Below, one piece after another: positions 3,405 to 47,048 of a stretch of DNA of 47,048 nt (the stretch's first letter is position 1; each line of letters opens with the position of its first letter). Source of the DNA: a virus (taxonomy: Duplodnaviria; Heunggongvirae; Uroviricota; Caudoviricetes); IMG/VR virus record IMGVR_UViG_2563366978_000001; one strand, given 5' to 3'. The position numbers and the translations under genes are program-made. The notes beneath the pieces are model-generated. The model searched no databases and was not told the DNA's origin. It worked only from the letters and a program-made list of their open reading frames with translations.

Positions 3405-3540
3405 TCCGTTTTATTGGTCGTGCTACCACCAGAGTTGCGAATCTCTTTATTGGTGGTAGCCCAGGCGGGGTTCGCAATACCGGTAAACGAAGAAACCGGC
3501 CCGACCGAAGTCAGCCCCACCTGAGCCACCATAATTCGGA
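3405..3540 (-). ncRNA. Candidate C4-type antisense regulatory RNA / structured leader upstream of the antirepressor operon
   Basis: GC-rich inverted repeats (GCTACCACC...GGTGGTAGC) immediately 5' of the first small ORF; by analogy with P1/N15 c4-icd-ant organisation; no homology check possible. Confidence 0.25.
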
Positions 3541-3694
3541 TATGCGCAGGTCTATACACACAAAAAAACACGCTGGCGCGTGTTGTGCGCTTCGTTTTGC
3601 CAGGATTGCGAAGTCCCGACTGCGGGATTTACCGCAGCGAGGTGACTTTACCTCCAAAACGACGCACACGTCAATAATTTGCAAAGACATTTTA

Positions 3695-8500: not shown

Positions 8501-9586
8501 TGGATAGACGCAGCGGACATCGTTGAATTTCGATAAGATTTCATAGCCAGTCCGCAGGCCGGTATTCCCTTTTCCTTCTGTGGCTGATTTCCGGTCATTA
8601 TCCAGTGCGCAGGTGATTTTTGCCGCCGGGTACATGTTTACCAGTTGTTCCACAACATGAACCATGTTATTAGCGGATACAGCGACAACCACAGCGTCAA
8701 AGCGTTTATCTTTTTTCGTGGCAAGCCAGATGGATGCACCAGTAGCAAAACCTTCTGTAACAGCGATGTTTTGCGCCCCTTTTAGCTCACCGATAACAAA
8801 GCAGGCACCGACGAAATCGCCGCTGGTTACGGCGCTGGTCTGGTATTTTCCACCTTGTTTGTCGATTCGCTGCCAACCCACAATACGACCATCGTAACGA
8901 CCGTCCAGGTGAGCCAGAGGGATAGCCATATACGTGGTTGGCCCCCTGCTCCATTTTGCGCTGTCGTGACTGGTCACGCGACGCACATCACACGAATTAA
9001 AAACGTCACGAATACCTTTTTTAATCGCATATGGCCATGAGCCGTCTTCTGCAGGAGCATGTTCCCACGCGCTGTGGAATGCCAGCCATCCCAGCAAACG
9101 TTCATGGTCCATTTGGTTGTTTTTCAGGTCATTAATTCGTTTTTGTTCTTCACGGCGACGACGTGCTTCGGCCTGACGTTCTATTCTTGCCCGTTCTTCT
9201 TCCGGTTGTGCGACCACGGTCGCATTATTCCGTTGTTGCTCACGGCGATATTCAGAAAACAGGAAGGAGAAACCGCTCCATGAGCCAGCATCGCTGCCTT
9301 TATGGACGAAGTTAATGAACGGGTAATCAATCCCTTTGCTGTGTTCCAGCCGGGAGTAAATTTCTACGCGTCCTTTGAGGCTCTTTTCGAGAGCTTCTGG
9401 AGATGTTTTATTGTATGAAGAGTAACGCTCAACACCCCCGCGAGGGTTGAGTTGGATGTTGTCGGAACAGGCAGACCAGTTGATACCAGCCATCTGTGCC
9501 AGCTCGGTTAGTTCATCCCGTGCTGCTTCAATTAGCGAGAACGGATCGCTGCCAAAGCGATCCGCATAGAAATCGTTTAATGTCAT
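5591..9586 (-). CDS. repA: Replication protein RepA (primase-helicase), 1331 aa
   Basis: Single ORF of N15 RepA size (about 1324 aa from memory) in the N15 position between immunity region and telN side. Confidence 0.9.
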   Translation of the reverse strand: MTLNDFYADRFGSDPFSLIEAARDELTELAQMAGINWSACSDNIQLNPRGGVERYSSYNKTSPEALEKSLKGRVEIYSRLEHSKGIDYPFINFVHKGSDAGSWSGFSFLFSEYRREQQRNNATVVAQPEEERARIERQAEARRRREEQKRINDLKNNQMDHERLLGWLAFHSAWEHAPAEDGSWPYAIKKGIRDVFNSCDVRRVTSHDSAKWSRGPTTYMAIPLAHLDGRYDGRIVGWQRIDKQGGKYQTSAVTSGDFVGACFVIGELKGAQNIAVTEGFATGASIWLATKKDKRFDAVVVAVSANNMVHVVEQLVNMYPAAKITCALDNDRKSATEGKGNTGLRTGYEILSKFNDVRCVYPTFEDDPQMECSDFNDLHKLRGLRETARQLFATANRLKTGTDLLSLTLNRLKTIKRDNRRTFAKELLRAVDIGMLTCPVPNSPSDLFNMFCIVLREMGLENIYRATVKDHIARRLNKKCRIAQAPRSFSERITDPNKRPQHITYKRLETSVMTDDVLKYVQSLQGIVIVRAGMGSGKSTGLLRPLMHSSERGISVAHRVSLIGGLWEMMTEGKGVKTDILHYQDPGYQEMAPYASKLTICINSIVKNCWQPLMRQHDYFGFDEATQGLRAVLSGRAMENPVAVFNTLIDALARTEQHPIMVDADANDLLVDLAELAMKRREELGLPAWLQIHVIELPVDVRNRETGEPIRVFYTEKDRIMTEVVKAVSDGEKIMLATDSSTFAEDVTATLRMHFPGKKFLCVNQKNKPEPEVEAFTNQPKKMVKKYDGLIYSPSISSGVSIEQKHFDRHFGMFCGEVVPSDAVQMLRRDRTAKEFIIGFDKARAKRETDPQKIERAFAQALLATAGMNGELTDVVFDGDRISMGVANTDFTRMKIKAAAIEATARNDYASNMICIMHSDGYKVSPLATDYAANDIGKDLRKEARDIVWEQTLDLHLNTETPQESEREELLKKRALTLEEQAKLVRWDIENELKLPVEEGTLKFYFDGARDKVRRYETMLLDEVTARRYDREEAAINFTYTYRQAGQWQYFVVTAMTREQADDVFKTKFPGIIDHKVKATPTVEVGARGFYALKSATLRQYFIDCGINPETMTGEATQERLKFARDNLMTAERRDLLNNVLHIGGFMTPKGKPKVPEALFKNICDSLGLKTGKRRGRDGDKRPTLRFVEPESAAFMLDILVQRQKDGLTLKTRKAEKTAIEMDRDLDLNIYMDDKTRSTNEQVQNAPHSVISEALAVLPVAVPESWAMSALSSEELATMSSWSSASIAMTFASLYLTEFMDHLSSNELRRLREYITGNSSCSYEEQGAFYG
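5873..5922. other. Candidate replication origin inside the 3' part of repA: 8-bp inverted repeat GGATCGCG/CGCGATCC around an AT-rich core with three GATC sites
   Basis: Direct reading; N15-type origins are reported within the 3' part of repA (from memory). Confidence 0.3.
9209..9224. repeat. sopC-like palindrome TGCGACCACGGTCGCA (inside repA); putative centromere site
   Basis: 16-bp core of the palindrome family repeated five times in the window. Confidence 0.55.
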
Positions 9587-17001: not shown

Positions 17002-17023
17002 CTGTGCGACCACGGTCGCACAG
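17002..17023. repeat. sopC-like palindrome CTGTGCGACCACGGTCGCACAG; putative centromere site
   Basis: 22-bp palindrome just upstream of the candidate late promoter region. Confidence 0.65.
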
Positions 17024-17107
17024 CACAAAAACGAAAAAGCTTGGCAAAATTACGGTTTTTAGTTATTGTTTTGTTAAGTTGGGTTTTTTGTACCCAACAG
17101 CCAACAA

Positions 17108-17131
17108 GCCGCCTTTATGGCGGTTTTTTTG
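17108..17131 (+). terminator. Intrinsic terminator (GCCGCC-TTTAT-GGCGG then T7); candidate tR'-like terminator of a short leader transcript
   Basis: Stem-loop plus 7-T tract about 60 nt downstream of a putative promoter (TTGGCA-17-TATTGT). Confidence 0.45.
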
Positions 17132-17265
17132 TGCCTGAAAAGTGGGCGCAGGACAAGTTGCAGCTTGTCCTGCGGTCAACCCATGCCAGAGCTATAGGCT
17201 GAACCTAAAGCCCACCCGCGATGCGCATCGCCGGGTTAGCTTACCCAGGCAAAAAAATAATAGCT

Positions 17266-18710: not shown

Positions 18711-19207
18711 TGCAGTCATCATTACGCAAAGCTGTCGCAACTGCTATTGGTGGCGGGGCTATTGCCATAGCATCTGTGCTCATCTCTGGTCCGAGCGGCA
18801 ACGATGGTCTGGAAGGTGTGAGACATAACCCCTACAAAGACATCGTTGGTGTATGGACTGTATGTTACGGGCATACAGGAAAAGACATTATGCTCGGTAA
18901 AACGTATACCGAAGCAGAATGCAAAGCTCTCCTGAATAAAGACCTTGCTACTGTCGCCAGACAAATTAACCCGTACATCAAAGTCGATATACCGGAAACA
19001 ACGCGTGGTGCTCTTTACTCGTTCGTTTACAACGTGGGTGCAGGCAATTTCAGAACATCGACACTTCTTCGCAAAATCAACCAGGGCGATATCAAAGGTG
19101 CATGTGATCAACTACGTCGCTGGACATATGCTGGCGGCAAGCAATGGAAAGGGCTGATGACTCGCCGTGAGATTGAGCGTGAAGTCTGTTTGTGGGGGCA
19201 GCAATGA
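18707..19207 (+). CDS. R: SAR endolysin (lysozyme, R21-like)
   Basis: N-terminal Gly/Ala-rich signal-anchor ([19 protein letters not shown]) and near-identity to my memory of phage 21 R. Confidence 0.85.
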
Positions 19208-19671
19208 GCAGAGTAACCGCAATTATCTCCGCACTGGTTATCTGCATCATCGTCTGCCTGTCGTGGGCTGTTAATCATTACCGTGATAACGCCATCGCCT
19301 ACAAAGAACAGCGTGATAAAAAAGTCAGTGAGCTGAAGCAGGCGACCGCCACCATCGCTGACATGCAGCAGCGTCAGCGTGATGTTGCTGCGCTCGATGC
19401 AAAATACACGAAGGAGTTGGCTGATGCGAAAGCTGAAAATGATGCTCTTCGGCGCAAGCTTGATAATGGTGGTCGGGTGCTCGTCAAAGGAAAATGCTCT
19501 GTGCCATCCTCAGCCGAAACCTCCAGCGCCTCCGGCATGGGCAATGATGCCACCGTCGAACTCTCTCCAGTTGCTGGACGAAACGTTCTCGGTATCCGGG
19601 ACGGAATCATCAGAGACCAGACAGCACTGAGAACGCTTCAGGAATACATCAAGACGCAATGCCCGAATTAA
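19204..19671 (+). CDS. Rz: Rz i-spanin
   Basis: N-terminal TM, coiled-coil, position after the endolysin; contains an embedded Rz1 frame. Confidence 0.75.
19424..19630 (+). CDS. Rz1: Rz1 o-spanin lipoprotein embedded in the +1 frame of Rz
   Basis: RBS AAGGAG then ATG; signal peptide with lipobox VVGC; Pro-rich mature part. Confidence 0.7.
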
Positions 19672-19712
19672 TCCCTCTGTATCAAAAACGAACTCAATTT
19701 GTTGGATAGTGA

Positions 19713-20024
19713 ATGAAAATTTATATTGCCGGGCCAATGACTGGATATGAGAACTTTAATCGTGACGCCTTTAATAAAGAGGCAGATCGTTTGTCACGAC
19801 ATGGTCACTCTGTCTTGAATCCAGCCACTTTGCCTAATGGTCTGACACAACGTGAATACATGGATATTTGCTTTGCAATGCTTCGTTGTGCTGATGCTAT
19901 TTTGATGCTTCCTGGCTGGAAAGCGTCTGCTGGAGCAACTGCTGAGTATCATTACGCATACAAGATGGAGATGCCGGTATTCACTACGCTGAATTACCCG
20001 CCAGCTTGTTCCTCTGTAGCATAA
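19713..20024 (+). CDS. Nucleoside 2-deoxyribosyltransferase-like (DUF4406-type) protein, 103 aa
   Basis: MKIYIAGPMTG N-terminus typical of this fold. Confidence 0.55.
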   Translation: MKIYIAGPMTGYENFNRDAFNKEADRLSRHGHSVLNPATLPNGLTQREYMDICFAMLRCADAILMLPGWKASAGATAEYHYAYKMEMPVFTTLNYPPACSSVA

Positions 20025-20042
20025 AAATCTCTTTGTTTCTCG

Positions 20043-20062
20043 TGTGCGACCGTGGTCGCACA
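20043..20062. repeat. sopC-like palindrome TGTGCGACCGTGGTCGCACA; putative centromere site
   Basis: 20-bp palindrome. Confidence 0.65.
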
Positions 20063-20262
20063 TTAAATACCGCGCTGCATCGTCGCCGTATTTCCGCATT
20101 AACCATGACCGTAGCCCGACGGGGAACTCCTCTGCGCGAGTGTGCGGAAATAATCAAAAACGATGCACACCGGGTTTTTACCGCGCTAATGATTCGCGGG
20201 TTTGTCCCTCATGCTCGCCAGTCCTGTGCGAGGGTGGAAGAAACAGGGCATGTATTCAGGAG

Positions 20263-20282
20263 CGTGCGACCGTGGTCGCACG
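20263..20282. repeat. sopC-like palindrome CGTGCGACCGTGGTCGCACG; putative centromere site
   Basis: 20-bp palindrome. Confidence 0.65.
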
Positions 20283-20304
20283 GTATCTTTGTCAGGAGGT
20301 TTTG

Positions 20305-20619
20305 ATGAAAGAGTTGCAAAAAATTAATTCAATAATGGAAAGGTTAAGTGCTCTTGAGCGTAAGCTGGACGATTGTGGAAAGCTGTGTGTTGAAAAGCAA
20401 AATGAGCTTTACCGGGAATTTTTTACAATCGTAAGTGAGCTGATGCCAATTGTTAATAACTGCCTGATGACATCCAGATTTTTTAATGTCGATGCTACTA
20501 CATCCAGAAAATTTTCTGTGAAAATTCAAGAAAGGGTTTCTGGTAGTGTGACAAGAGAGATGGCTGAACAGTTGGTGGCAATGAGCAATAAAACAAAAAG
20601 AAAAAAGCATTGCTTGTAA
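20305..20619 (+). CDS. Hypothetical protein, about 104 aa, AT-rich moron just upstream of cos
   Basis: RBS AGGAGG then ATG at 20305; the upstream part of the track ORF covers the centromere palindromes. Confidence 0.45.
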   Translation: MKELQKINSIMERLSALERKLDDCGKLCVEKQNELYREFFTIVSELMPIVNNCLMTSRFFNVDATTSRKFSVKIQERVSGSVTREMAEQLVAMSNKTKRKKHCL

Positions 20620-20720
20620 CAGCAAATCAGCTTTCAGGGCGCGTTGACTTTCAGGTGTTGCGGCATGCAGATGATAATTATTATCATTGCGGGTCCTTTC
20701 CAGTGATCCGACAGGTTACG

Positions 20721-20732
20721 GGGCGGAAGGCG
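20721..20732. other. cos: cosN cohesive-end site, predicted 12-nt overhang GGGCGGAAGGCG, flanked by lambda-like cosQ/cosB
   Basis: Flanking sequence matches my memory of lambda cos; the 12-mer differs from lambda GGGCGGCGACCT at 5 positions. Confidence 0.7.
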
Positions 20733-20909
20733 CGCGGGTTTTCGCTATTTATGAAAATTTTCCGGTTTAAGGCGTTTCCGTTCTTCTTCTCCGTAACTTA
20801 ATGTTTTTATTTAAAACACCCCCTGAAAAGAAAGGAAACGACAGGTGCTGAAAACAGGCCTTTTGGCCTCTGTCGTTTCCTTTCTCTGTTTTTATCCGTG
20901 GAATGAACA

Positions 20910-21429
20910 ATGGAAGTCAACAAAAAGCAGCTGGCTGAAATTTTCGGTGCGAGTATCCGTACCATTCAGAACTGGCAGGAGCAGGGAATGCCCGTTCTGC
21001 GAGGCGGTGGAAAGGGTAATGAGGTGCTTTATGACTCTGCCGCCGTCATAAAATGGTATGCCGAAAGGGATGCTGAAATTGAGAACGAAAAGCTGCGCCG
21101 GGAGGTTGAAGAATTACGGCTGGCCAGCGAGGCAGATCTTCACCCCGGAACACTTGAATTTGAGCGCCATCGCCTGACTCGTGCTCAGGCGACGGCGCAG
21201 GAACTGAAAAATGCCAGAGAATCGGCTGAAGTGGTGGAAACCGCATTCTGTACTTTCGTGCTGTCGCGTATAGCAAGGGAAATATCCAGTATTCTCGACG
21301 GTATTCCTCTGTCGGTGCAGCGACGTTTTCCTGAGCTGGATAACCGGCATATTGATTTCCTGAAACGGGATATCATCAAAGCCATGAACAAAGCAGCCGC
21401 GCTGGATGAACTGATACCGGGGTTGCTGA

Positions 21430-21455
<26 letters not shown>
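20910..21455 (+). CDS. Nu1: Terminase small subunit
   Basis: Near-identical to lambda Nu1 (MEVNKKQLA...IEQSG), 181 aa. Confidence 0.95.
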
Positions 21456-40351: not shown

Positions 40352-42727
40352 ATGGCAGCAGTAAAAATCTCAGGTGTGCTGAAAGATGGTGCGGGAAAAC
40401 CAATACAGAACTGCACTATTCAACTGAAGGCAAAGCGTAACAGCACCACGGTACTGGTGAACACGGTGGCCTCTGAAAATCCTGATGAAGCCGGGCGTTA
40501 CAGTATGGACGTTGAGTATGGTCAGTACAGCGTCATCCTGTGGATTGAGGGTTCTCAGCCATCACATGTTGGGACCATTACCGTCTATGAAGGTTCCTGT
40601 CCGGGGACGCTGAATGATTTTCTCGGTGCCATGACGGAAGATGATGTCATGCCGGAGGCATTGCGCCGTTTTCAGGAAATGGTGGAAGAAGCGGCACGCA
40701 ACGCCGAAGCCGCCTCTCAGAGCGCAGCGGCGGCAAAGAAATCCGAAACTGCAGCGGCATCATCGAAGAACGCGGCGAAAACCTCAGAAACGAATGCAGC
40801 TAACAGCGCACAGGCGGCAGCGACCTCACAGACTGCATCGGCAAACTCCGCGACAGCAGCCAAAAAATCAGAAACCAACGCGAAAAACAGCGAGACAGCC
40901 GCAAAGACGAGCGAAACCAACGCAAAGTCCAGCCAGACGGCAGCGAAAACCAGCGAAACGAATGCCAAAGCCAGTGAAACTGCGGCGAAAAGCAGTCAGG
41001 ATGCAGCAGCCGAAAGCGAGAGCGCGGCAGCTGGTTCTGCGACTTCAGCTGCTGGATCAGCAACTGCTGCGGCTAACAGTCAGAAAGCAGCGAAGACGAG
41101 TGAAACTAACGCAAAGTCCAGCCAGACGGCAGCGAAGACCAGCGAAACGAATGCCAAAGCCAGCGAAACTGCGGCGAAAAGCAGTCAGGATGCAGCAGCC
41201 GAAAGCGAGAGTGCTGCAGCTGGTTCTGCAAGCGCGGCTGCTGCTTCTGCCACTGCATCAGCTAACAGTCAAAAAGCAGCAAAAACCAGTGAAACCAACG
41301 CAAAGGTGAGCGAAACAGCGGCTGCGAACTCAGCGAAAGCATCGGCAGCAAGCCAGACGGCAGCTAAAGCAAGCGAAGATGCAGCCAGAGAGTACGCAAG
41401 CCAGGCTGCGGAGCCGTATAAATATGTCTTACAGCCGCTGCCTGATGTGTGGATACCATTTAACGATTCGCTGGATATGATTACGGGCTTTTCGCCGTCA
41501 TATAAAAAGATTGTTATTGGTGATGATGAAATAACGATGCCTGGCGACAAGGTTGTTAAGTTTAAACGCGCATCGAAAGCAACCTATATTAATAAATCTG
41601 GTGTGCTGACAGAGGCTGCCATTGACGAGCCACGGTTTGAACGTGATGGCCTGCTTATTGAGGGGCAAAGAACGAACTACATGCTCAATTCGGAAAGCCC
41701 TGCCAGTTGGGGGCGATCGTCAAATATGGATGTTCCCGAAACCGGGACGGATAGTTTTGGTTTTACCTATGGAAAGTTCGTCTGTAACGATTCTCTGATT
41801 GGGCAAACCTCAGCCATTAATATGGCATCAATTGCTGCAACAAAGTCAGTTGATGTCTCAGGCGATAATAAACACGTGACAACCTCATGTCGTTTTAAAA
41901 CAGAACTGCAGGTAAGGTTGCGTATCCGGTTTGATAAATATGACGGTAGCGCAACAACTTTTCTTGGTGATGCGTATATTGATACACAAACGCTTGAAAT
42001 TAATATGACAGGCGGTGCTGCCTCAAGGATTACAGCGAGAGTCAGAAAGGACGAAGCTACCGGATGGATTTTTGCAGAGGCAACAATTCAGGCAATTGAT
42101 GGGGAGTTAAAAATAGGCTCTCAGATACAGTATTCTCCTAAGCAGAGCGGGGCAACCGTATCTGGTGACTATATTTATCTGGCCACCCCACAAGTAGAAG
42201 ATGGGCCTTGTGTATCATCTTTTATTATATCAGGAGCGACGGCGGCGACCCGCGCAAGCGATATAGTTACAGTTCCAATTAAGAATAATCTTTATAAGAT
42301 TCCTTTTACGGTTCTTTGTGAGGTACATAAGAACTGGTATAAAACGCCAAATGCAGCGCCACGTGTTTTTGATACCGGCGGTCATCAAACCGGAGCGGCT
42401 ATTATTCTTGGCTTCGGTCGTTCAACAGATTACGACGGATTTCCTTATTGCGATATTGGAGGAGCTAACAGACGGGTAAACGAAAACGCATCGCTTGAAA
42501 AAATGGTTATGGGGATGCGTGTAAAGTCAGAGCAGTCTACGTGCTCAGTAAGTAACGGGCATATATCCAGCGAAACAAAAACCACATGGTCCTGTATTCA
42601 GAACACCGCAATTATCCGTATTGGAGGCCAGACTACAGCCGGGTTACGTCATTTATTTGGTCATGTCAGGAATTTCAGAATATGGCACAAGGCATTGACT
42701 GATGCTCAGGTGGGGGAGTCAATCTAA
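40352..42727 (+). CDS. stf: Side tail fibre: lambda Stf-like N-terminus, repetitive Ala/Ser/Thr-rich shaft, different C-terminal receptor-binding domain (LamG-like motif NFRIWHKALTDAQV)
   Basis: N-terminal about 120 aa match lambda Stf; internal 189-bp tandem repeat; C-terminus unlike lambda. Confidence 0.8.
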   Translation: MAAVKISGVLKDGAGKPIQNCTIQLKAKRNSTTVLVNTVASENPDEAGRYSMDVEYGQYSVILWIEGSQPSHVGTITVYEGSCPGTLNDFLGAMTEDDVMPEALRRFQEMVEEAARNAEAASQSAAAAKKSETAAASSKNAAKTSETNAANSAQAAATSQTASANSATAAKKSETNAKNSETAAKTSETNAKSSQTAAKTSETNAKASETAAKSSQDAAAESESAAAGSATSAAGSATAAANSQKAAKTSETNAKSSQTAAKTSETNAKASETAAKSSQDAAAESESAAAGSASAAAASATASANSQKAAKTSETNAKVSETAAANSAKASAASQTAAKASEDAAREYASQAAEPYKYVLQPLPDVWIPFNDSLDMITGFSPSYKKIVIGDDEITMPGDKVVKFKRASKATYINKSGVLTEAAIDEPRFERDGLLIEGQRTNYMLNSESPASWGRSSNMDVPETGTDSFGFTYGKFVCNDSLIGQTSAINMASIAATKSVDVSGDNKHVTTSCRFKTELQVRLRIRFDKYDGSATTFLGDAYIDTQTLEINMTGGAASRITARVRKDEATGWIFAEATIQAIDGELKIGSQIQYSPKQSGATVSGDYIYLATPQVEDGPCVSSFIISGATAATRASDIVTVPIKNNLYKIPFTVLCEVHKNWYKTPNAAPRVFDTGGHQTGAAIILGFGRSTDYDGFPYCDIGGANRRVNENASLEKMVMGMRVKSEQSTCSVSNGHISSETKTTWSCIQNTAIIRIGGQTTAGLRHLFGHVRNFRIWHKALTDAQVGESI

Positions 42728-44436: not shown

Positions 44437-45426
44437 TTAGTTATTTTTTACATCGGAAGAATTTCCAAACGCCTCCTCAAGAATAGATTCAATTTTACTC
44501 ATTAGGTGCGATGGTATTTTTCTGTTATCTAATTTTAATGTTGTGAAATTTTTCCCATATTTCGCCACAACACCGTCTCCATATTTCTTTTCCCTTTTCT
44601 CTCCATGTGAATTGTTTTTCTCAACAATAATGAAATCATGAAGAGCCTGTATTATTCTTTGCGCATCTAAACTTTCACCTGATTTTTTCATCCTCAGCAA
44701 CTGAGATGCAGCATTTTTCATGGCTGCTTCCTGTCCCTGATATGCTTTAAAAAGAGCGTCTCCTGCTCTGGCTGATAACTCACCAGGATGGTTAAATATT
44801 GCCAATATATCTTTAGGTAAACCGGCTGTATTAATACATCGGCTGATAATATTTCTATCCACGCCTTCGGCTTCAGCTAAAGATTTTACGTTACCGTCAA
44901 ATTCATGGAGCCTTCGCAGGTATCTTTTCCCCCTTTCATAGGCGCTGATAGGTCTATAGTCGTTGCCTATCTGCGATAACCATTGCATTTGTTCATCATC
45001 TAAATCGCCAATAAGAACACGATAATCGCATCCAGTTATAATGGCTGCTTTACGTCTTCGAGAACCATCAGCTACTTCAACAATACCTGACACTTTTCTT
45101 GCGAAAGCCGGATTTTGTTGCCCAGAAGTTAGAAAAGATGGAATTAAATCAGCTAGAGAAGATTCATTTAATAAATCTTGATCACGCTCATTACCTAGCC
45201 ATACCATTGTTGCCATTTCTACTTTATCTGCGGGGATCGTTTCTAACTTAAAGTTAACATTACGTCCGCATACTGGCAAAGTTATGCTATTACCGGTTAA
45301 TGAACTCAGTTGACGTTTTAAATCACCAACCATAGGTGATACCGGCTGATGTTCAGGTGCATGATGATTATTACTCATAATGCGATTAATATCCGGAGCA
45401 TTTTTTAGAAGAGAGCGTTGTTTCAT
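44437..45426 (-). CDS. sopB: Partition protein SopB (ParB family)
   Basis: 329 aa; conserved block ITLPVCGR...SGNERDQ...DGSRRRKAA...GNDYRP as in F SopB. Confidence 0.95.
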   Translation of the reverse strand: MKQRSLLKNAPDINRIMSNNHHAPEHQPVSPMVGDLKRQLSSLTGNSITLPVCGRNVNFKLETIPADKVEMATMVWLGNERDQDLLNESSLADLIPSFLTSGQQNPAFARKVSGIVEVADGSRRRKAAIITGCDYRVLIGDLDDEQMQWLSQIGNDYRPISAYERGKRYLRRLHEFDGNVKSLAEAEGVDRNIISRCINTAGLPKDILAIFNHPGELSARAGDALFKAYQGQEAAMKNAASQLLRMKKSGESLDAQRIIQALHDFIIVEKNNSHGEKREKKYGDGVVAKYGKNFTTLKLDNRKIPSHLMSKIESILEEAFGNSSDVKNN

Positions 45427-46592
45427 TCTTCGTTCTCCCAGCGAGGTTTTATTAGATCATCAAAAATTTCTCGACAAACAGGGTCCCATATAGAGACGGC
45501 ATTTCTCCATGCATTAAGTGTTGAACGCTGGTTTGCCGCTTGTTCAAATACTGTTCGCATTTTTATCTGACCTTTACCTACTTCATCGGTAACGCGTACA
45601 ACCTGACGTAATACCATTGATCCCCATGTATTTCTTATTTGCTCTTCCATCCATCGTGATTGATTTCCTGTAGTGAGACTATATTTAGTCAGAAGCAAGC
45701 GAACGGTCGGCTCAAATCCGCCTAGGTCAACGCTTTCTAGGAGATCGAGAAGCATTGTGAAAAACTGTAGAACAGAGGCGTAATCAAATAATTCTGCAGG
45801 GGTAGCAACAACGATAACGTCAGCTGCGCAAACAACGTTAATGGTTCCTGTACCGAGGTTTGGAGCACTATCTATAACGATAACATCGTAGTTATCCCAA
45901 ACTGATTCTATAGCTGCGCGTAGCATCAGGTGAGGAGGGTGAGGCAATTTACCCTGAGCATGATATTGCATGAGATCTGTTTCTATACGGTGTAAAGCTA
46001 GGCAGCTAGGAATAATGTCCAGTCCAGGCCAGCATGTTGGTTTTATAGCATATTCAGCGTTATCGCGTTCGCCCAAGTAAAATGGCAGTAAAGTATCCTC
46101 GGCATGTATATGTAAATCAGGTACATAACCGTGATACATGGAGGCTGTTCCCTGAGGATCGTTACCTTCAACTAAAAGAACACGATGACCTTGTAATGCT
46201 AGCCATTGTGCCTGATGTACTGCAGACGATGTTTTATAAACGCCGCCTTTGTGTGACATAACAGCAAGCACAACTGGGTTTTTATCTTGTGGCCGTTGGT
46301 TTGGGTTGCCAAAAACAGCTCGCATACTATTGATTTGATCTATGGTATAACCGGCACGACGTTCAACTCTTCCTCTCATTTCAAAGTCAGGTGCAGGTAA
46401 ACGCCCGTTCTTCTCAGCATCTCTTATTGCTTGAGGAGTTACACCAATTAAATCTGCTACTTCAGTTATCCCCCATCTACGCGTGATACGCCGAGCTTCA
46501 GGACTATCATCACCGAATTGAGCTATAGCAATTGCTTGGGTCATTTCTTGACCGCGCGTAACACAATCTTGTAATAACTTTTTCAAAGACAT
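45423..46592 (-). CDS. sopA: Partition ATPase SopA (ParA family)
   Basis: 389 aa; Walker A KGGVYKTS and long blocks identical to F SopA. Confidence 0.95.
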   Translation of the reverse strand: MSLKKLLQDCVTRGQEMTQAIAIAQFGDDSPEARRITRRWGITEVADLIGVTPQAIRDAEKNGRLPAPDFEMRGRVERRAGYTIDQINSMRAVFGNPNQRPQDKNPVVLAVMSHKGGVYKTSSAVHQAQWLALQGHRVLLVEGNDPQGTASMYHGYVPDLHIHAEDTLLPFYLGERDNAEYAIKPTCWPGLDIIPSCLALHRIETDLMQYHAQGKLPHPPHLMLRAAIESVWDNYDVIVIDSAPNLGTGTINVVCAADVIVVATPAELFDYASVLQFFTMLLDLLESVDLGGFEPTVRLLLTKYSLTTGNQSRWMEEQIRNTWGSMVLRQVVRVTDEVGKGQIKMRTVFEQAANQRSTLNAWRNAVSIWDPVCREIFDDLIKPRWENEE

Positions 46593-46691: not shown

Positions 46692-46882
46692 ACGAAGATT
46701 TGAGCAAAATCATCTTTTGTTTTATCCCTTAAATGCAAAAAAAAACAACGACAGGCTCATAACAAATTGATAATAAAGGATTTTTTAAAAGAAAGGAAAT
46801 CGTATAAAACTAGTGAAACATGATGAAAATCATCAATGAGATACGTTTCCTCTATTTATTCTCCTAATCCTCACCAACAAAA

Positions 46883-47022
46883 GAACACAATCAAAGATCG
46901 TAAAACAACAATAATAATTCACACAAAATAAAGAACACAAATACAGAAAACAACAACACAATAAAAACAAGAGAACACAAGCTATAAATATTACACCAAT
47001 AGAGAACACTAATCAAGAACAT
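46883..47022. repeat. Right telomere-proximal repeat array: AGAACAC at 46883, 46933, 46973, 47003, and AGAACAT at 47016
   Basis: Direct reading; spacing shortens toward the end (50, 40, 30, 13 bp). Confidence 0.65.
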
Positions 47023-47048
47023 ATCAGCACATAATTCCCCATTATACG
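47022..47048. other. Half of the telomere resolution palindrome (telO/telRL-like): TATCAGCACATAATTCCCCATTATACG
   Basis: Matches the N15 telRL half-site TATCAGCACACAATTGCCCATTATACGC as I remember it with 2 mismatches; the window ends one base short of the predicted symmetry centre. Confidence 0.8.

Follow-up and report, generated by a model that had tools for sequence, protein, structure and literature searches.

The segment between positions 20062 and 20263 of the virus record IMGVR_UViG_2563366978_000001 (47,048 nucleotides; this whole stretch is hereafter called the window) contains a copy of a conserved element, which we refer to as E. Our analysis suggests that E is widespread in the late operons of lambdoid phages, where it is an unannotated candidate for a structured RNA, and that in the window, an N15-like linear plasmid prophage, it is a passenger between duplicated centromere sites, the palindromes IR4a and IR4b. 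A preliminary description of this DNA had treated the segment as a feature of plasmid prophages, but it proved to be an imported copy of an element common to hundreds of lambdoid phages. That description had left three options for the segment: a small RNA, a regulatory DNA structure or a roadblock on late transcription. Because the compensatory changes described below fall on the plus (late-transcript) strand, RNA structure is the best supported of the three. For an independent small RNA gene we found neither a promoter nor a terminator of its own, and neither a roadblock to transcription nor a regulatory structure at the DNA level finds support in our results. Taken as a whole, the explanation that E is a functional RNA acting in cis within the late transcript, captured here between duplicated centromere sites, appears to us moderately probable.

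The profile and the alignment of E (A2) were built from 81 distinct copies. Searched with this profile, the window yields one full-length copy (nhmmer, 20072-20247, E = 1.2e-54), and by BLAST the region from exactly 20072 to about 20250 is 80-93% identical to 424 phage records. Lambda-like phages, 434, 21 and many Stx1 and Stx2 phages are among the carriers. In lambda the copy lies at 46,868-47,032, between bor and lambdap78 (nhmmer E = 1e-35), and in the DLP12 prophage of E. coli K-12 at 579,009-579,174, between borD and ybcV; in the window, neither bor nor a p78/ybcV-type gene is adjacent to E. The matches of lambda, HK630 and DLP12 span the full profile (E = 1e-34 to 1e-35), and these copies are about 82-83% identical to that of the window over helices P1-P4 (see below). 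Altogether, E is present in 4,592 of 5,426 complete E. coli genomes (about 85%), with a median of two copies and a maximum of 11; the E. coli copies number about 11,770. Most of the listed matches overlap no PGAP annotation and, among the matches listed, an RNA feature is never overlapped.

Copies of E are 163 to 182 nt long and have sharp boundaries (left ...(A)TGCGC, right GGAAGAAACNGG), beyond which the flanks differ wholly between phages. In about 128 loci surveyed, Rz lies upstream of E on the same strand wherever it can be identified. In many loci the gap between them is just 12-21 nt; elsewhere bor (on the opposite strand) or other inserts intervene. The right neighbours vary and include lambda-type cos/Nu1, a 933W-type terminase, a TonB-like gene and, on the opposite strand, DUF3950, ybcV and p78 genes. 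With Rz always upstream and the right neighbours variable, E delimits the lysis cassette at its 3' side inside the late operon, and moron insertion points are found on both sides of it. The copy in the window is in the late-transcript sense, as in other phages.

Genuine homologues of E are confined to Escherichia/Shigella. A scan of genome contigs returned mostly lambda DNA contamination in assemblies of unrelated bacteria, on contigs of about 3.5 kb and 48.5 kb, and its genuine matches were all from Escherichia. The lambda copy turned up in assemblies of Cohnella, Flavobacterium, Pedobacter, Arcanobacterium ('plasmid unnamed1', 3,566 bp), Pseudomonas and Shewanella; these contigs look like control or spike-in contamination rather than real genes. 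Partial copies also occur on large plasmids; of all places matched in E. coli, 696 are on plasmids. One partial copy, at 90603-90698 of NZ_CP022731.1 (query 5-98, 86.5% identity), is unannotated and lies between ISApl1 and IS2 transposase genes. The idea that such partial copies belong to an iss/bor locus was dropped, as the one inspected is flanked by IS elements and has no iss annotated.

RNAalifold, applied to the alignment of 81 copies, predicts the interrupted hairpin that had already been noticed in the window together with a 3' helix. The hairpin described earlier was thus confirmed, its inner arms being complementary at 10 of 10 positions, its outer arms 7 bp long and its reported coordinates right to within 1 nt. 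In all, seven helices (P1-P7, Table 1) are proposed, and all seven are intact in the window copy. Each of P1, P2, P3, P5, P6 and P7 has at least one compensatory pair. Helices P1-P4 are 97.8-100% paired across the 81 copies, with compensatory exchanges between U-A and C-G at alignment columns 21/109 and 35/93, between C-G and U-A at columns 36/92 and 53/80, and between C-G and G-C at columns 40/88. Both sides change in two pairs of P5 and in three pairs of P6, and at columns 175/197 of P7 the pair is G-C in 43 sequences, U-A in 19 and G-U in 12. Lambda has CCCGGA/UCCGGG where 434 has CCCGCA/UGCGGG. P5 varies or is exchanged in some phage types, and lambda-type copies lack it or have another sequence in its place. 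A direct repeat, TACCGCGCT, had also been reported; it is indeed present at 20068 and 20179, but it is not conserved and carries no meaning that we can see. Its recurrence is coincidental, since the first copy straddles the junction between E and its left linker, which differs in other phages, while the second is the 5' arm of P5.

Over the 43 proposed pairs (3,417 cells), which come from the same 81 sequences in which pairing was then counted, 97.7% of cells hold standard pairs compared with 94.9% in shuffles, and none of 500 shuffles reaches the observed value. Changes on both sides affect 11 pairs, with 5.7 expected, and 84 cells, with 24 expected. When the partners are slid by 1-3 columns, pairing is just 31-60%. 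Since shuffling takes no account of how the sequences are related, we added a null that keeps this relatedness, made up of all other column pairs with a complementary consensus. In the proposed helices 81% of the consensus-deviating cells stay canonical compared with 40% under this null, and 81% is reached in none of 20,000 resamples. When the same pairs are read on the minus strand, canonical cells make up 45% of the deviating ones and 87.7% of all cells are paired as opposed to 97.7%; the drop to 45%, which is the null level, arises because many U-G wobbles become A-C mismatches. Likewise, the RNAalifold consensus energy is -28.8 kcal/mol for the plus strand and -11.6 kcal/mol for the minus strand. 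Pairs kept beyond phylogenetic expectation and a strand-specific fold suggest that E can be counted among structured RNAs. Besides the seven helices, GUGUGC (20140-45) and GCACAC (20165-70) are complementary and invariant. Pairing between them, situated 4 nt before the U run GGGUUUUU, would be at the expense of the 3' arms of P2 and P1 and is a possible alternative conformation on which covariation, given the invariance of both stretches, is uninformative.

Might E instead encode a small protein? Mechanically, two open reading frames (ORFs) extend over the segment, 20006-20305 (TTG start, 99 aa) and 20044-20619 (GTG start, 191 aa), and Pfam gave no match for either. Three reading frames come into question: the latter frame of the window, a 77-aa frame annotated as 'Rz-like spanin' and a mini-ORF of 10 codons, ATG...TAA (MRCIVAVFPH), at the 5' edge of most copies (A2 columns 14-46). 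It is true that 37 of the 81 copies, including that of the window, have the candidate frame uninterrupted across E and that some phage records have a coding sequence annotated over E. However, the frame is closed in the remaining 44 copies, the copies differ by indels of 1-2 nt and have lengths that are not multiples of three apart, and the position that would be third in each codon varies least. The mini-ORF, for its part, lacks its ATG in the window and in 434-type copies. The 'Rz-like spanin' annotation in Stx2a_F451 (1504-1737 of its stretch) is probably erroneous, as the frame is not conserved. We thus regard a protein-coding role as extremely improbable and E, judged by its sequence, as non-coding, in keeping with the earlier remark that no convincing ORF covers the segment.

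Another alternative is that E acts as DNA, whether as a protein-binding or cruciform site, as a relic of a bor promoter on the minus strand, or as a roadblock or insulator together with SopB bound at IR4a and IR4b. This would agree with the annotation in HK630 of a minus-strand promoter (TGGACA-15 nt-TACAAT; 1814-1840 of its stretch) inside the homologue of E, with the bor start codon lying 117-184 bp from E in many phages, and with the two SopB sites that flank E in the window; ParB-type proteins spread from their sites, a subject treated in PMC7205306. The HK630 hexamers are not conserved, though. The window has CGGTCA...TACGGC in their place, and TACGGC is also found in 434 and 21, so that the HK630 feature is likely a mis-annotation. 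A promoter scan found no promoter-like site in E, consensus scans being weak tests. Moreover, E also occurs directly after Rz without bor, which together with the unconserved hexamers led us to reject E as a relic bor promoter. HK630 has a PhoP-box-like direct repeat, TGTTTAgggttTGTTTA (about 1739-1755 of its stretch, minus strand), some 55-70 bp upstream of the bor start, and borD is PhoP-regulated. Being far closer to bor, this repeat is the likelier bor control region, which would place the real promoter outside E. Covariation on the plus strand that includes G-U wobbles is not expected of duplex-DNA recognition, and the bracketing by palindromes is confined to one lineage. We therefore find a role at the DNA level very unlikely. 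Two further DNA features were weighed and set aside. One is an integron attC-like folded site, for which core-site motifs and an integrase are missing; the other is a Chi-like octamer present in many copies, GATGGTGG, whose variable positions covary as RNA pairs.

How E would be produced is suggested by what its surroundings lack. No conserved promoter was detected 5' of E with the same weak consensus scans, the left flank being variable and the Rz stop often 12-21 nt away. A scan for intrinsic terminators found none inside E or at its end; only IR4b (20263-82 followed by GGTATCTTTGT) is terminator-like. A permissive search of 19500-21100 against Rfam 15 gave no match inside 20062-20263 even at E <= 10, and at gathering thresholds the whole window has only C4 and isrK (3449-3638), with none in the segment. 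The known prophage small RNAs (sRNAs) AgvB, AsxR, Esr41 and STnc100 were considered and rejected, as they have no Rfam match to E. A limited search of the literature returned nothing on a bor promoter, on a borD/ybcV/rzpD sRNA or on the lambda transcriptome of the E region.

These results bear directly on the possibility that E gives rise to a trans-acting regulatory RNA, either a 3'UTR-derived sRNA cut from the late transcript or one transcribed in the lysogen. Invariant single-stranded stretches would let such an RNA act on mRNAs of the host or the phage, or bind a protein. The unpaired CAUUAAC, AUCAAAAACGAU, CACACCGGG and GGAAGAAAC are in fact nearly invariant across the 81 copies, and the A-rich GAAGAAAC and U-rich GGGUUUUU presumably resemble Hfq-binding motifs. 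That E has been kept in cryptic prophages, DLP12 among them, and occurs in 85% of E. coli genomes would also be in line with a trans-acting role, and in the window the GC-rich hairpins of the two palindromes could delimit an RNA of about 240 nt. Yet neither a conserved promoter nor an intrinsic terminator accompanies E, it is not among the Rfam families of prophage sRNAs, and the prophage sRNAs described so far (EcOnc/AgvB/AsxR, PasA-D) are located elsewhere. All in all, this seems rather unlikely to us, but owing to the conserved unpaired stretches a trans-acting or protein-binding role stays the first rival of cis action.

Since no promoter or terminator of its own was found, E should be made within the late transcript. 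With the late promoter region upstream of it, near 17040-17130 and on the same strand, E would be transcribed as part of the Q-antiterminated late transcript. The plus-strand RNA is predicted to fold into an interrupted hairpin of about 90 nt (P1-P4), the small P5 hairpin and, towards the 3' end, a domain with a pseudoknot (P6/P7), and would act in cis on the late polycistronic mRNA. On one hand, it may be a structured barrier guarding the S/R/Rz message from 3'-5' exonuclease decay. On the other hand, it may provide a defined endonuclease site (RNase III/E). Either way, the mRNA of the lysis genes would be uncoupled from the downstream cargo and packaging genes. An interrupted hairpin of about 25 bp, followed by a pseudoknot and located where the lysis genes give way to interchangeable downstream DNA, is best fitted by a processing or stability boundary of the late mRNA, which we put forward tentatively, as a possibility well short of an even chance.

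Several points weigh against a functional cis-acting RNA. In single-sequence folding the whole segment is close to shuffles (z = -0.33 for the plus and -0.40 for the minus strand), and the hairpin alone is marginal (z = -2.1; 7 of 200 shuffles fold as well). By its own terms, the preliminary description would have been refuted by a lack of transcript or conservation together with folding energy no better than that of shuffled controls. For the whole segment the energy part nearly came out this way, while conservation and covariation argue the opposite; the more-than-chance support for the proposed structure thus comes from comparative evidence and not from folding energy. All copies are from Escherichia/Shigella phages and are 80-95% identical. 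There are few compensatory events, and these are in part owed to common descent. The unpaired AUCAAAAACGAU, CACACCGGG and GGAAGAAAC are as conserved as the stems, which a simple exonuclease barrier would not suffice to explain and which might point to a partner of a more specific kind. The lambda copy, without P5 and with a diverged P6, departs in its 3' domain from the window copy, which has both helices. No description of E came up in the limited literature search, although an earlier one may exist, an outcome that cuts both ways. Finally, the processing or stability boundary is a function that we infer.

A sceptical interpretation of such data is that E has no function and is mosaic junction DNA, shared and kept by recombination, the apparent structure reflecting linked substitutions in a few haplotypes. 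Lambdoid phages do share many segments of about 90% identity, E sits in a region of moron insertion with both flanks variable, its distribution is limited to Escherichia/Shigella phages, and the folding energy of the whole segment is shuffle-like. But the signal left in the control that preserves relatedness (81% compared with 40%, 0 of 20,000) is strand-specific and argues otherwise, as does the loss of pairing with slid partners. Changes compatible with G-U pairing on one strand only are not expected of neutral DNA, and E persists while its surroundings are swapped. A functionless E is, in our view, decidedly unlikely. At the other extreme, E might represent a new class of RNA with a specific activity, its conserved loops and pseudoknot binding a protein or ligand, or catalysing or directing cleavage. 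It would then control, in lambda and essentially every other lambdoid phage of E. coli, the boundary between lysis genes and downstream cargo and packaging genes, and its placement between two SopB-loading sites would physically couple assembly of the partition complex to late-RNA function. This combination we consider unlikely.

With a cis-acting E, the closest analogues would be the put RNA of HK022, the sib RNase III site of lambda and REP-type hairpins. All of these are structured RNAs within a long transcript that affect its fate in cis, as is proposed for E, and a long interrupted hairpin is a typical shape of an RNase III substrate. However, E has no sequence or Rfam relationship to them, has a predicted pseudoknotted 3' domain, and is located in the late operon past Rz and not near pL, pR or att. 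AgvB, AsxR, Esr41, STnc100 and PasA-D are, like E, non-coding elements of Escherichia/Shigella lambdoid prophages and often multicopy. Here too the positions differ: AgvB and AsxR are in a moron site downstream of PR', PasA/C/D near the antiterminator Q and the holin-lysozyme operon, and PasB within the structural-gene operon, in contrast to E past Rz. Set against these sRNAs, E is an element of about 180 nt for which no promoter or terminator of its own was found.

The palindromes that bracket E in the window are located at 20043-20062 (TGTGCGACC/GGTCGCACA) and 20263-20282 (CGTGCGACC/GGTCGCACG), as had been claimed, each with 9-bp arms and a 2-nt spacer. Their 18-bp cores, GTGCGACCGTGGTCGCAC, are identical (20044-61 and 20264-81) and 220 bp apart. 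The pattern GTGCGACCNNGGTCGCAC occurs five times in the window (at 9208, 11651, 17004, 20044 and 20264) compared with a chance expectation of 0.14, and none of 100 shuffles reaches five. The SopB-binding sequences IR1-IR4 of N15 have been tabulated, and their consensus is GTGCGACC-N2-GGTCGCAC (PMC7205306 Table 4); both cores match it exactly. Cognate sopA and sopB genes are on the same replicon, and the position of IR4a, past the lysis and DUF4406 genes and before cos, is homologous to that of N15 IR4 and of the phiKO2 partition site. By sequence, cognate genes and position, both palindromes are N15-type SopB centromere sites, with binding itself putative.

All four N15 sites have counterparts in the window, at 9208, 11651, 17004 and 20044, and the copy at 20264 is additional, giving a total of five sites compared with four in N15. 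In N15 one site is inside repA, one past the Q-like gene, one some 20 bp ahead of the late promoter and one in the interval from gene 58 to gene 59; the positions in the window are the same, namely in repA, past the Q-like gene, 5' of the late promoter and in the interval from the lysis region to cos. N15 IR4 is 19 nt past gene 58, and the phiKO2 site, annotated as 'putative plasmid partitioning site' and corresponding in position to IR4a, is 16 nt past the stop of the DUF4406-like gp58. N15 annotates its own IR4 as a putative rho-independent terminator, to which IR4b followed by GGTATCTTTGT is similar. The comparison with N15 and phiKO2 proposed earlier thus found one SopB-type site at the same position, as opposed to two around a foreign lambdoid element in the window, while nhmmer detected no E in the stretches examined (N15 24,000-46,375 and phiKO2 45,600-51,601). 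In N15, unlike the window, a methylase gene separates the DUF4406 gene from IR4. The sopC locus of the F plasmid resembles N15-type sites in consisting of short inverted repeats bound by a SopB-family ParB, but it is a tandem array of 10 copies of a 43-bp repeat, whereas N15-type sites are dispersed and are not used by F SopB (PMC7205306).

The arrangement IR4a-E-IR4b is shared by the Ravinvirus phages YDC107_1 and PhiR46_1, to which the region of interest is 98-99.7% identical. Both carry a second copy of the element, E2, which is 92-93% identical to the first and ends 11 nt before the lambda-like cos region. The location of E2 next to cos suggests that the lambda-like cos/terminase module, when this lineage first acquired it, already included E in its usual place. 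The E flanked by the palindromes is, judging from these comparisons, a second copy that arose with the duplication of IR4, in a rearrangement that we have not reconstructed. The window has no E2 owing to a 1.38-kb deletion relative to PhiR46_1 (window 20656|20665 corresponding to 2758|4139 of the PhiR46_1 stretch). This deletion removed E2, two small genes and the remainder of a 286-aa gene that is now the 104-codon ORF 20305-20619. YDC107_1 has a smaller deletion at this locus. The single palindrome and the lack of E in the examined stretches of N15 and phiKO2 indicate that the bracketed arrangement is a lineage-specific recombination product. It was seen in this lineage only, with no evidence linking partition to E; the extra palindrome can be understood as a fifth centromere site, and partition need not be coupled to E.

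If E is a functional RNA, lambda and its relatives, the best-studied group of phages, carry an undescribed structured RNA in their late operon. About 85% of complete E. coli genomes would then hold such an RNA, frequently in more than one copy, without its being marked as RNA in current annotation. It would offer a handle on the unequal expression of genes within a single late transcript of about 25 kb, and a fixed landmark for the exchange of morons (bor, TonB-like genes, ybcV, DUF3950). If E is inert, the segment is still fully explained and a false lead is removed. The cos-proximal centromere site of N15-like prophages can be duplicated and hold imported lambdoid DNA between its copies, which bears on the evolution of dispersed centromeres.

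Table 1. Element E, its proposed helices, the putative SopB sites and neighbouring features in the window
Feature	Coordinates	Strand	Remarks
Element E	20072..20247	+ (late-transcript sense)	conserved non-coding lambdoid element, candidate structured RNA; full nhmmer profile length
P1 (predicted)	20077-83 / 20160-66	+	outer arms GCATCGT / ACGATGC
P2 (predicted)	20089-98 / 20143-52	+	inner arms TATTTCCGCA / TGCGGAAATA, 10/10 complementary
P3 (predicted)	20110-14 / 20132-36	+	
P4 (predicted)	20115-17 / 20122-24	+	
Long interrupted hairpin P1-P4	20077..20166	+	about 90 nt
P5 (predicted)	20181-85 / 20195-99	+	CCGCG/CGCGG hairpin
P6 (predicted)	20210-18 / 20228-36	+	
P7 (predicted)	20223-27 / 20243-47	+	pseudoknot with P6
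P6/P7 candidate H-type pseudoknot	20210..20247	+	A-rich loop GAAGAA
IR4a, putative N15-type SopB site	20044..20061		palindrome GTGCGACC-GT-GGTCGCAC; 19 nt past DUF4406 stop
Left linker, IR4a to E	20062..20071		ATTAAATACC, 10 nt, lineage-specific; lambdoid homology begins only at 20072
Right linker	20248..20263		first ~11 nt common to some lambdoid loci, remainder lineage-specific
IR4b, putative SopB site	20264..20281		second identical palindrome; terminator-like hairpin as RNA, then GGTATCTTTGT
IR3-equivalent putative SopB site	17004..17021		just 5' of the late promoter/terminator from which E would be transcribed
DUF4406 gene, left neighbour	19713..20024	+	nucleoside 2-deoxyribosyltransferase-like; Pfam PF14359, E = 3.7e-34
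Right neighbour ORF	20305..20619	+	104 codons; shortened 5' part of 286-aa PhiR46_1 gene
Lambda-like cos region	20657..20909	+	upstream of Nu1; cos itself near 20.7 kb
Nu1, lambda-type	20910-21455		Pfam E = 1.1e-95

The window as a whole is an N15-like linear plasmid prophage with a telomere-to-telomere layout. This follows from a Pfam search of its ORFs, which identified a protelomerase (TelN, 149-2050), SopB (44437-45426, minus strand; SoPB_HTH, E = 1.5e-23), SopA, a ParA-type ATPase (45423-46592, minus strand), Rz (19192-19671) and Nu1, together with the identity to Ravinvirus phages. The genes and sites around E are ordered late promoter, methylase, holin, lysozyme, Rz, DUF4406, IR4a, E, IR4b, truncated ORF, cos and Nu1. 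The DUF4406 gene is homologous to N15 gene 57 and phiKO2 gp58. As to the right linker, the right flanks of four lambdoid loci (L033, L034, L074 and L112) read CGTGTATTCAGG...

Comparison with the N15 annotation places the late promoter and a terminator near 17.04-17.13 kb; N15 has the same layout, with an IR at 41124-41, the -35 element at 41162 and the terminator at 41229. In the 17004-17135 region of the window, a late-promoter-like TTGGCA...TAGTTAT occurs about 20 bp 3' of the IR3-equivalent site and is followed by hairpins with U runs at 17080-17100 and 17108-17133. Within the cos region, GGGTCCT (20692-98) is presumably cosQ-like and the cohesive-end region presumably near 20722-33, the subsite names following those of lambda and the annotation of 434 and 21. 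The 12-nt cohesive-end sequence of the window is GGGCGGAAGGCG; the lambda cohesive end, GGGCGGCGACCT, has no match in the window allowing up to one mismatch. Just 5' of Nu1 lies a near-perfect hairpin of about 30 bp (20824-91), common to lambda-type phages, which yields spurious miRNA-precursor matches in Rfam. Near the left telomere end, C4 antisense RNA (3449-3536, minus strand, 82 bits) and isrK (3563-3638, minus strand, 53 bits) are adjacent, and this locus presumably represents the antirepressor-control RNA known from P1, P7 and N15-type phages.

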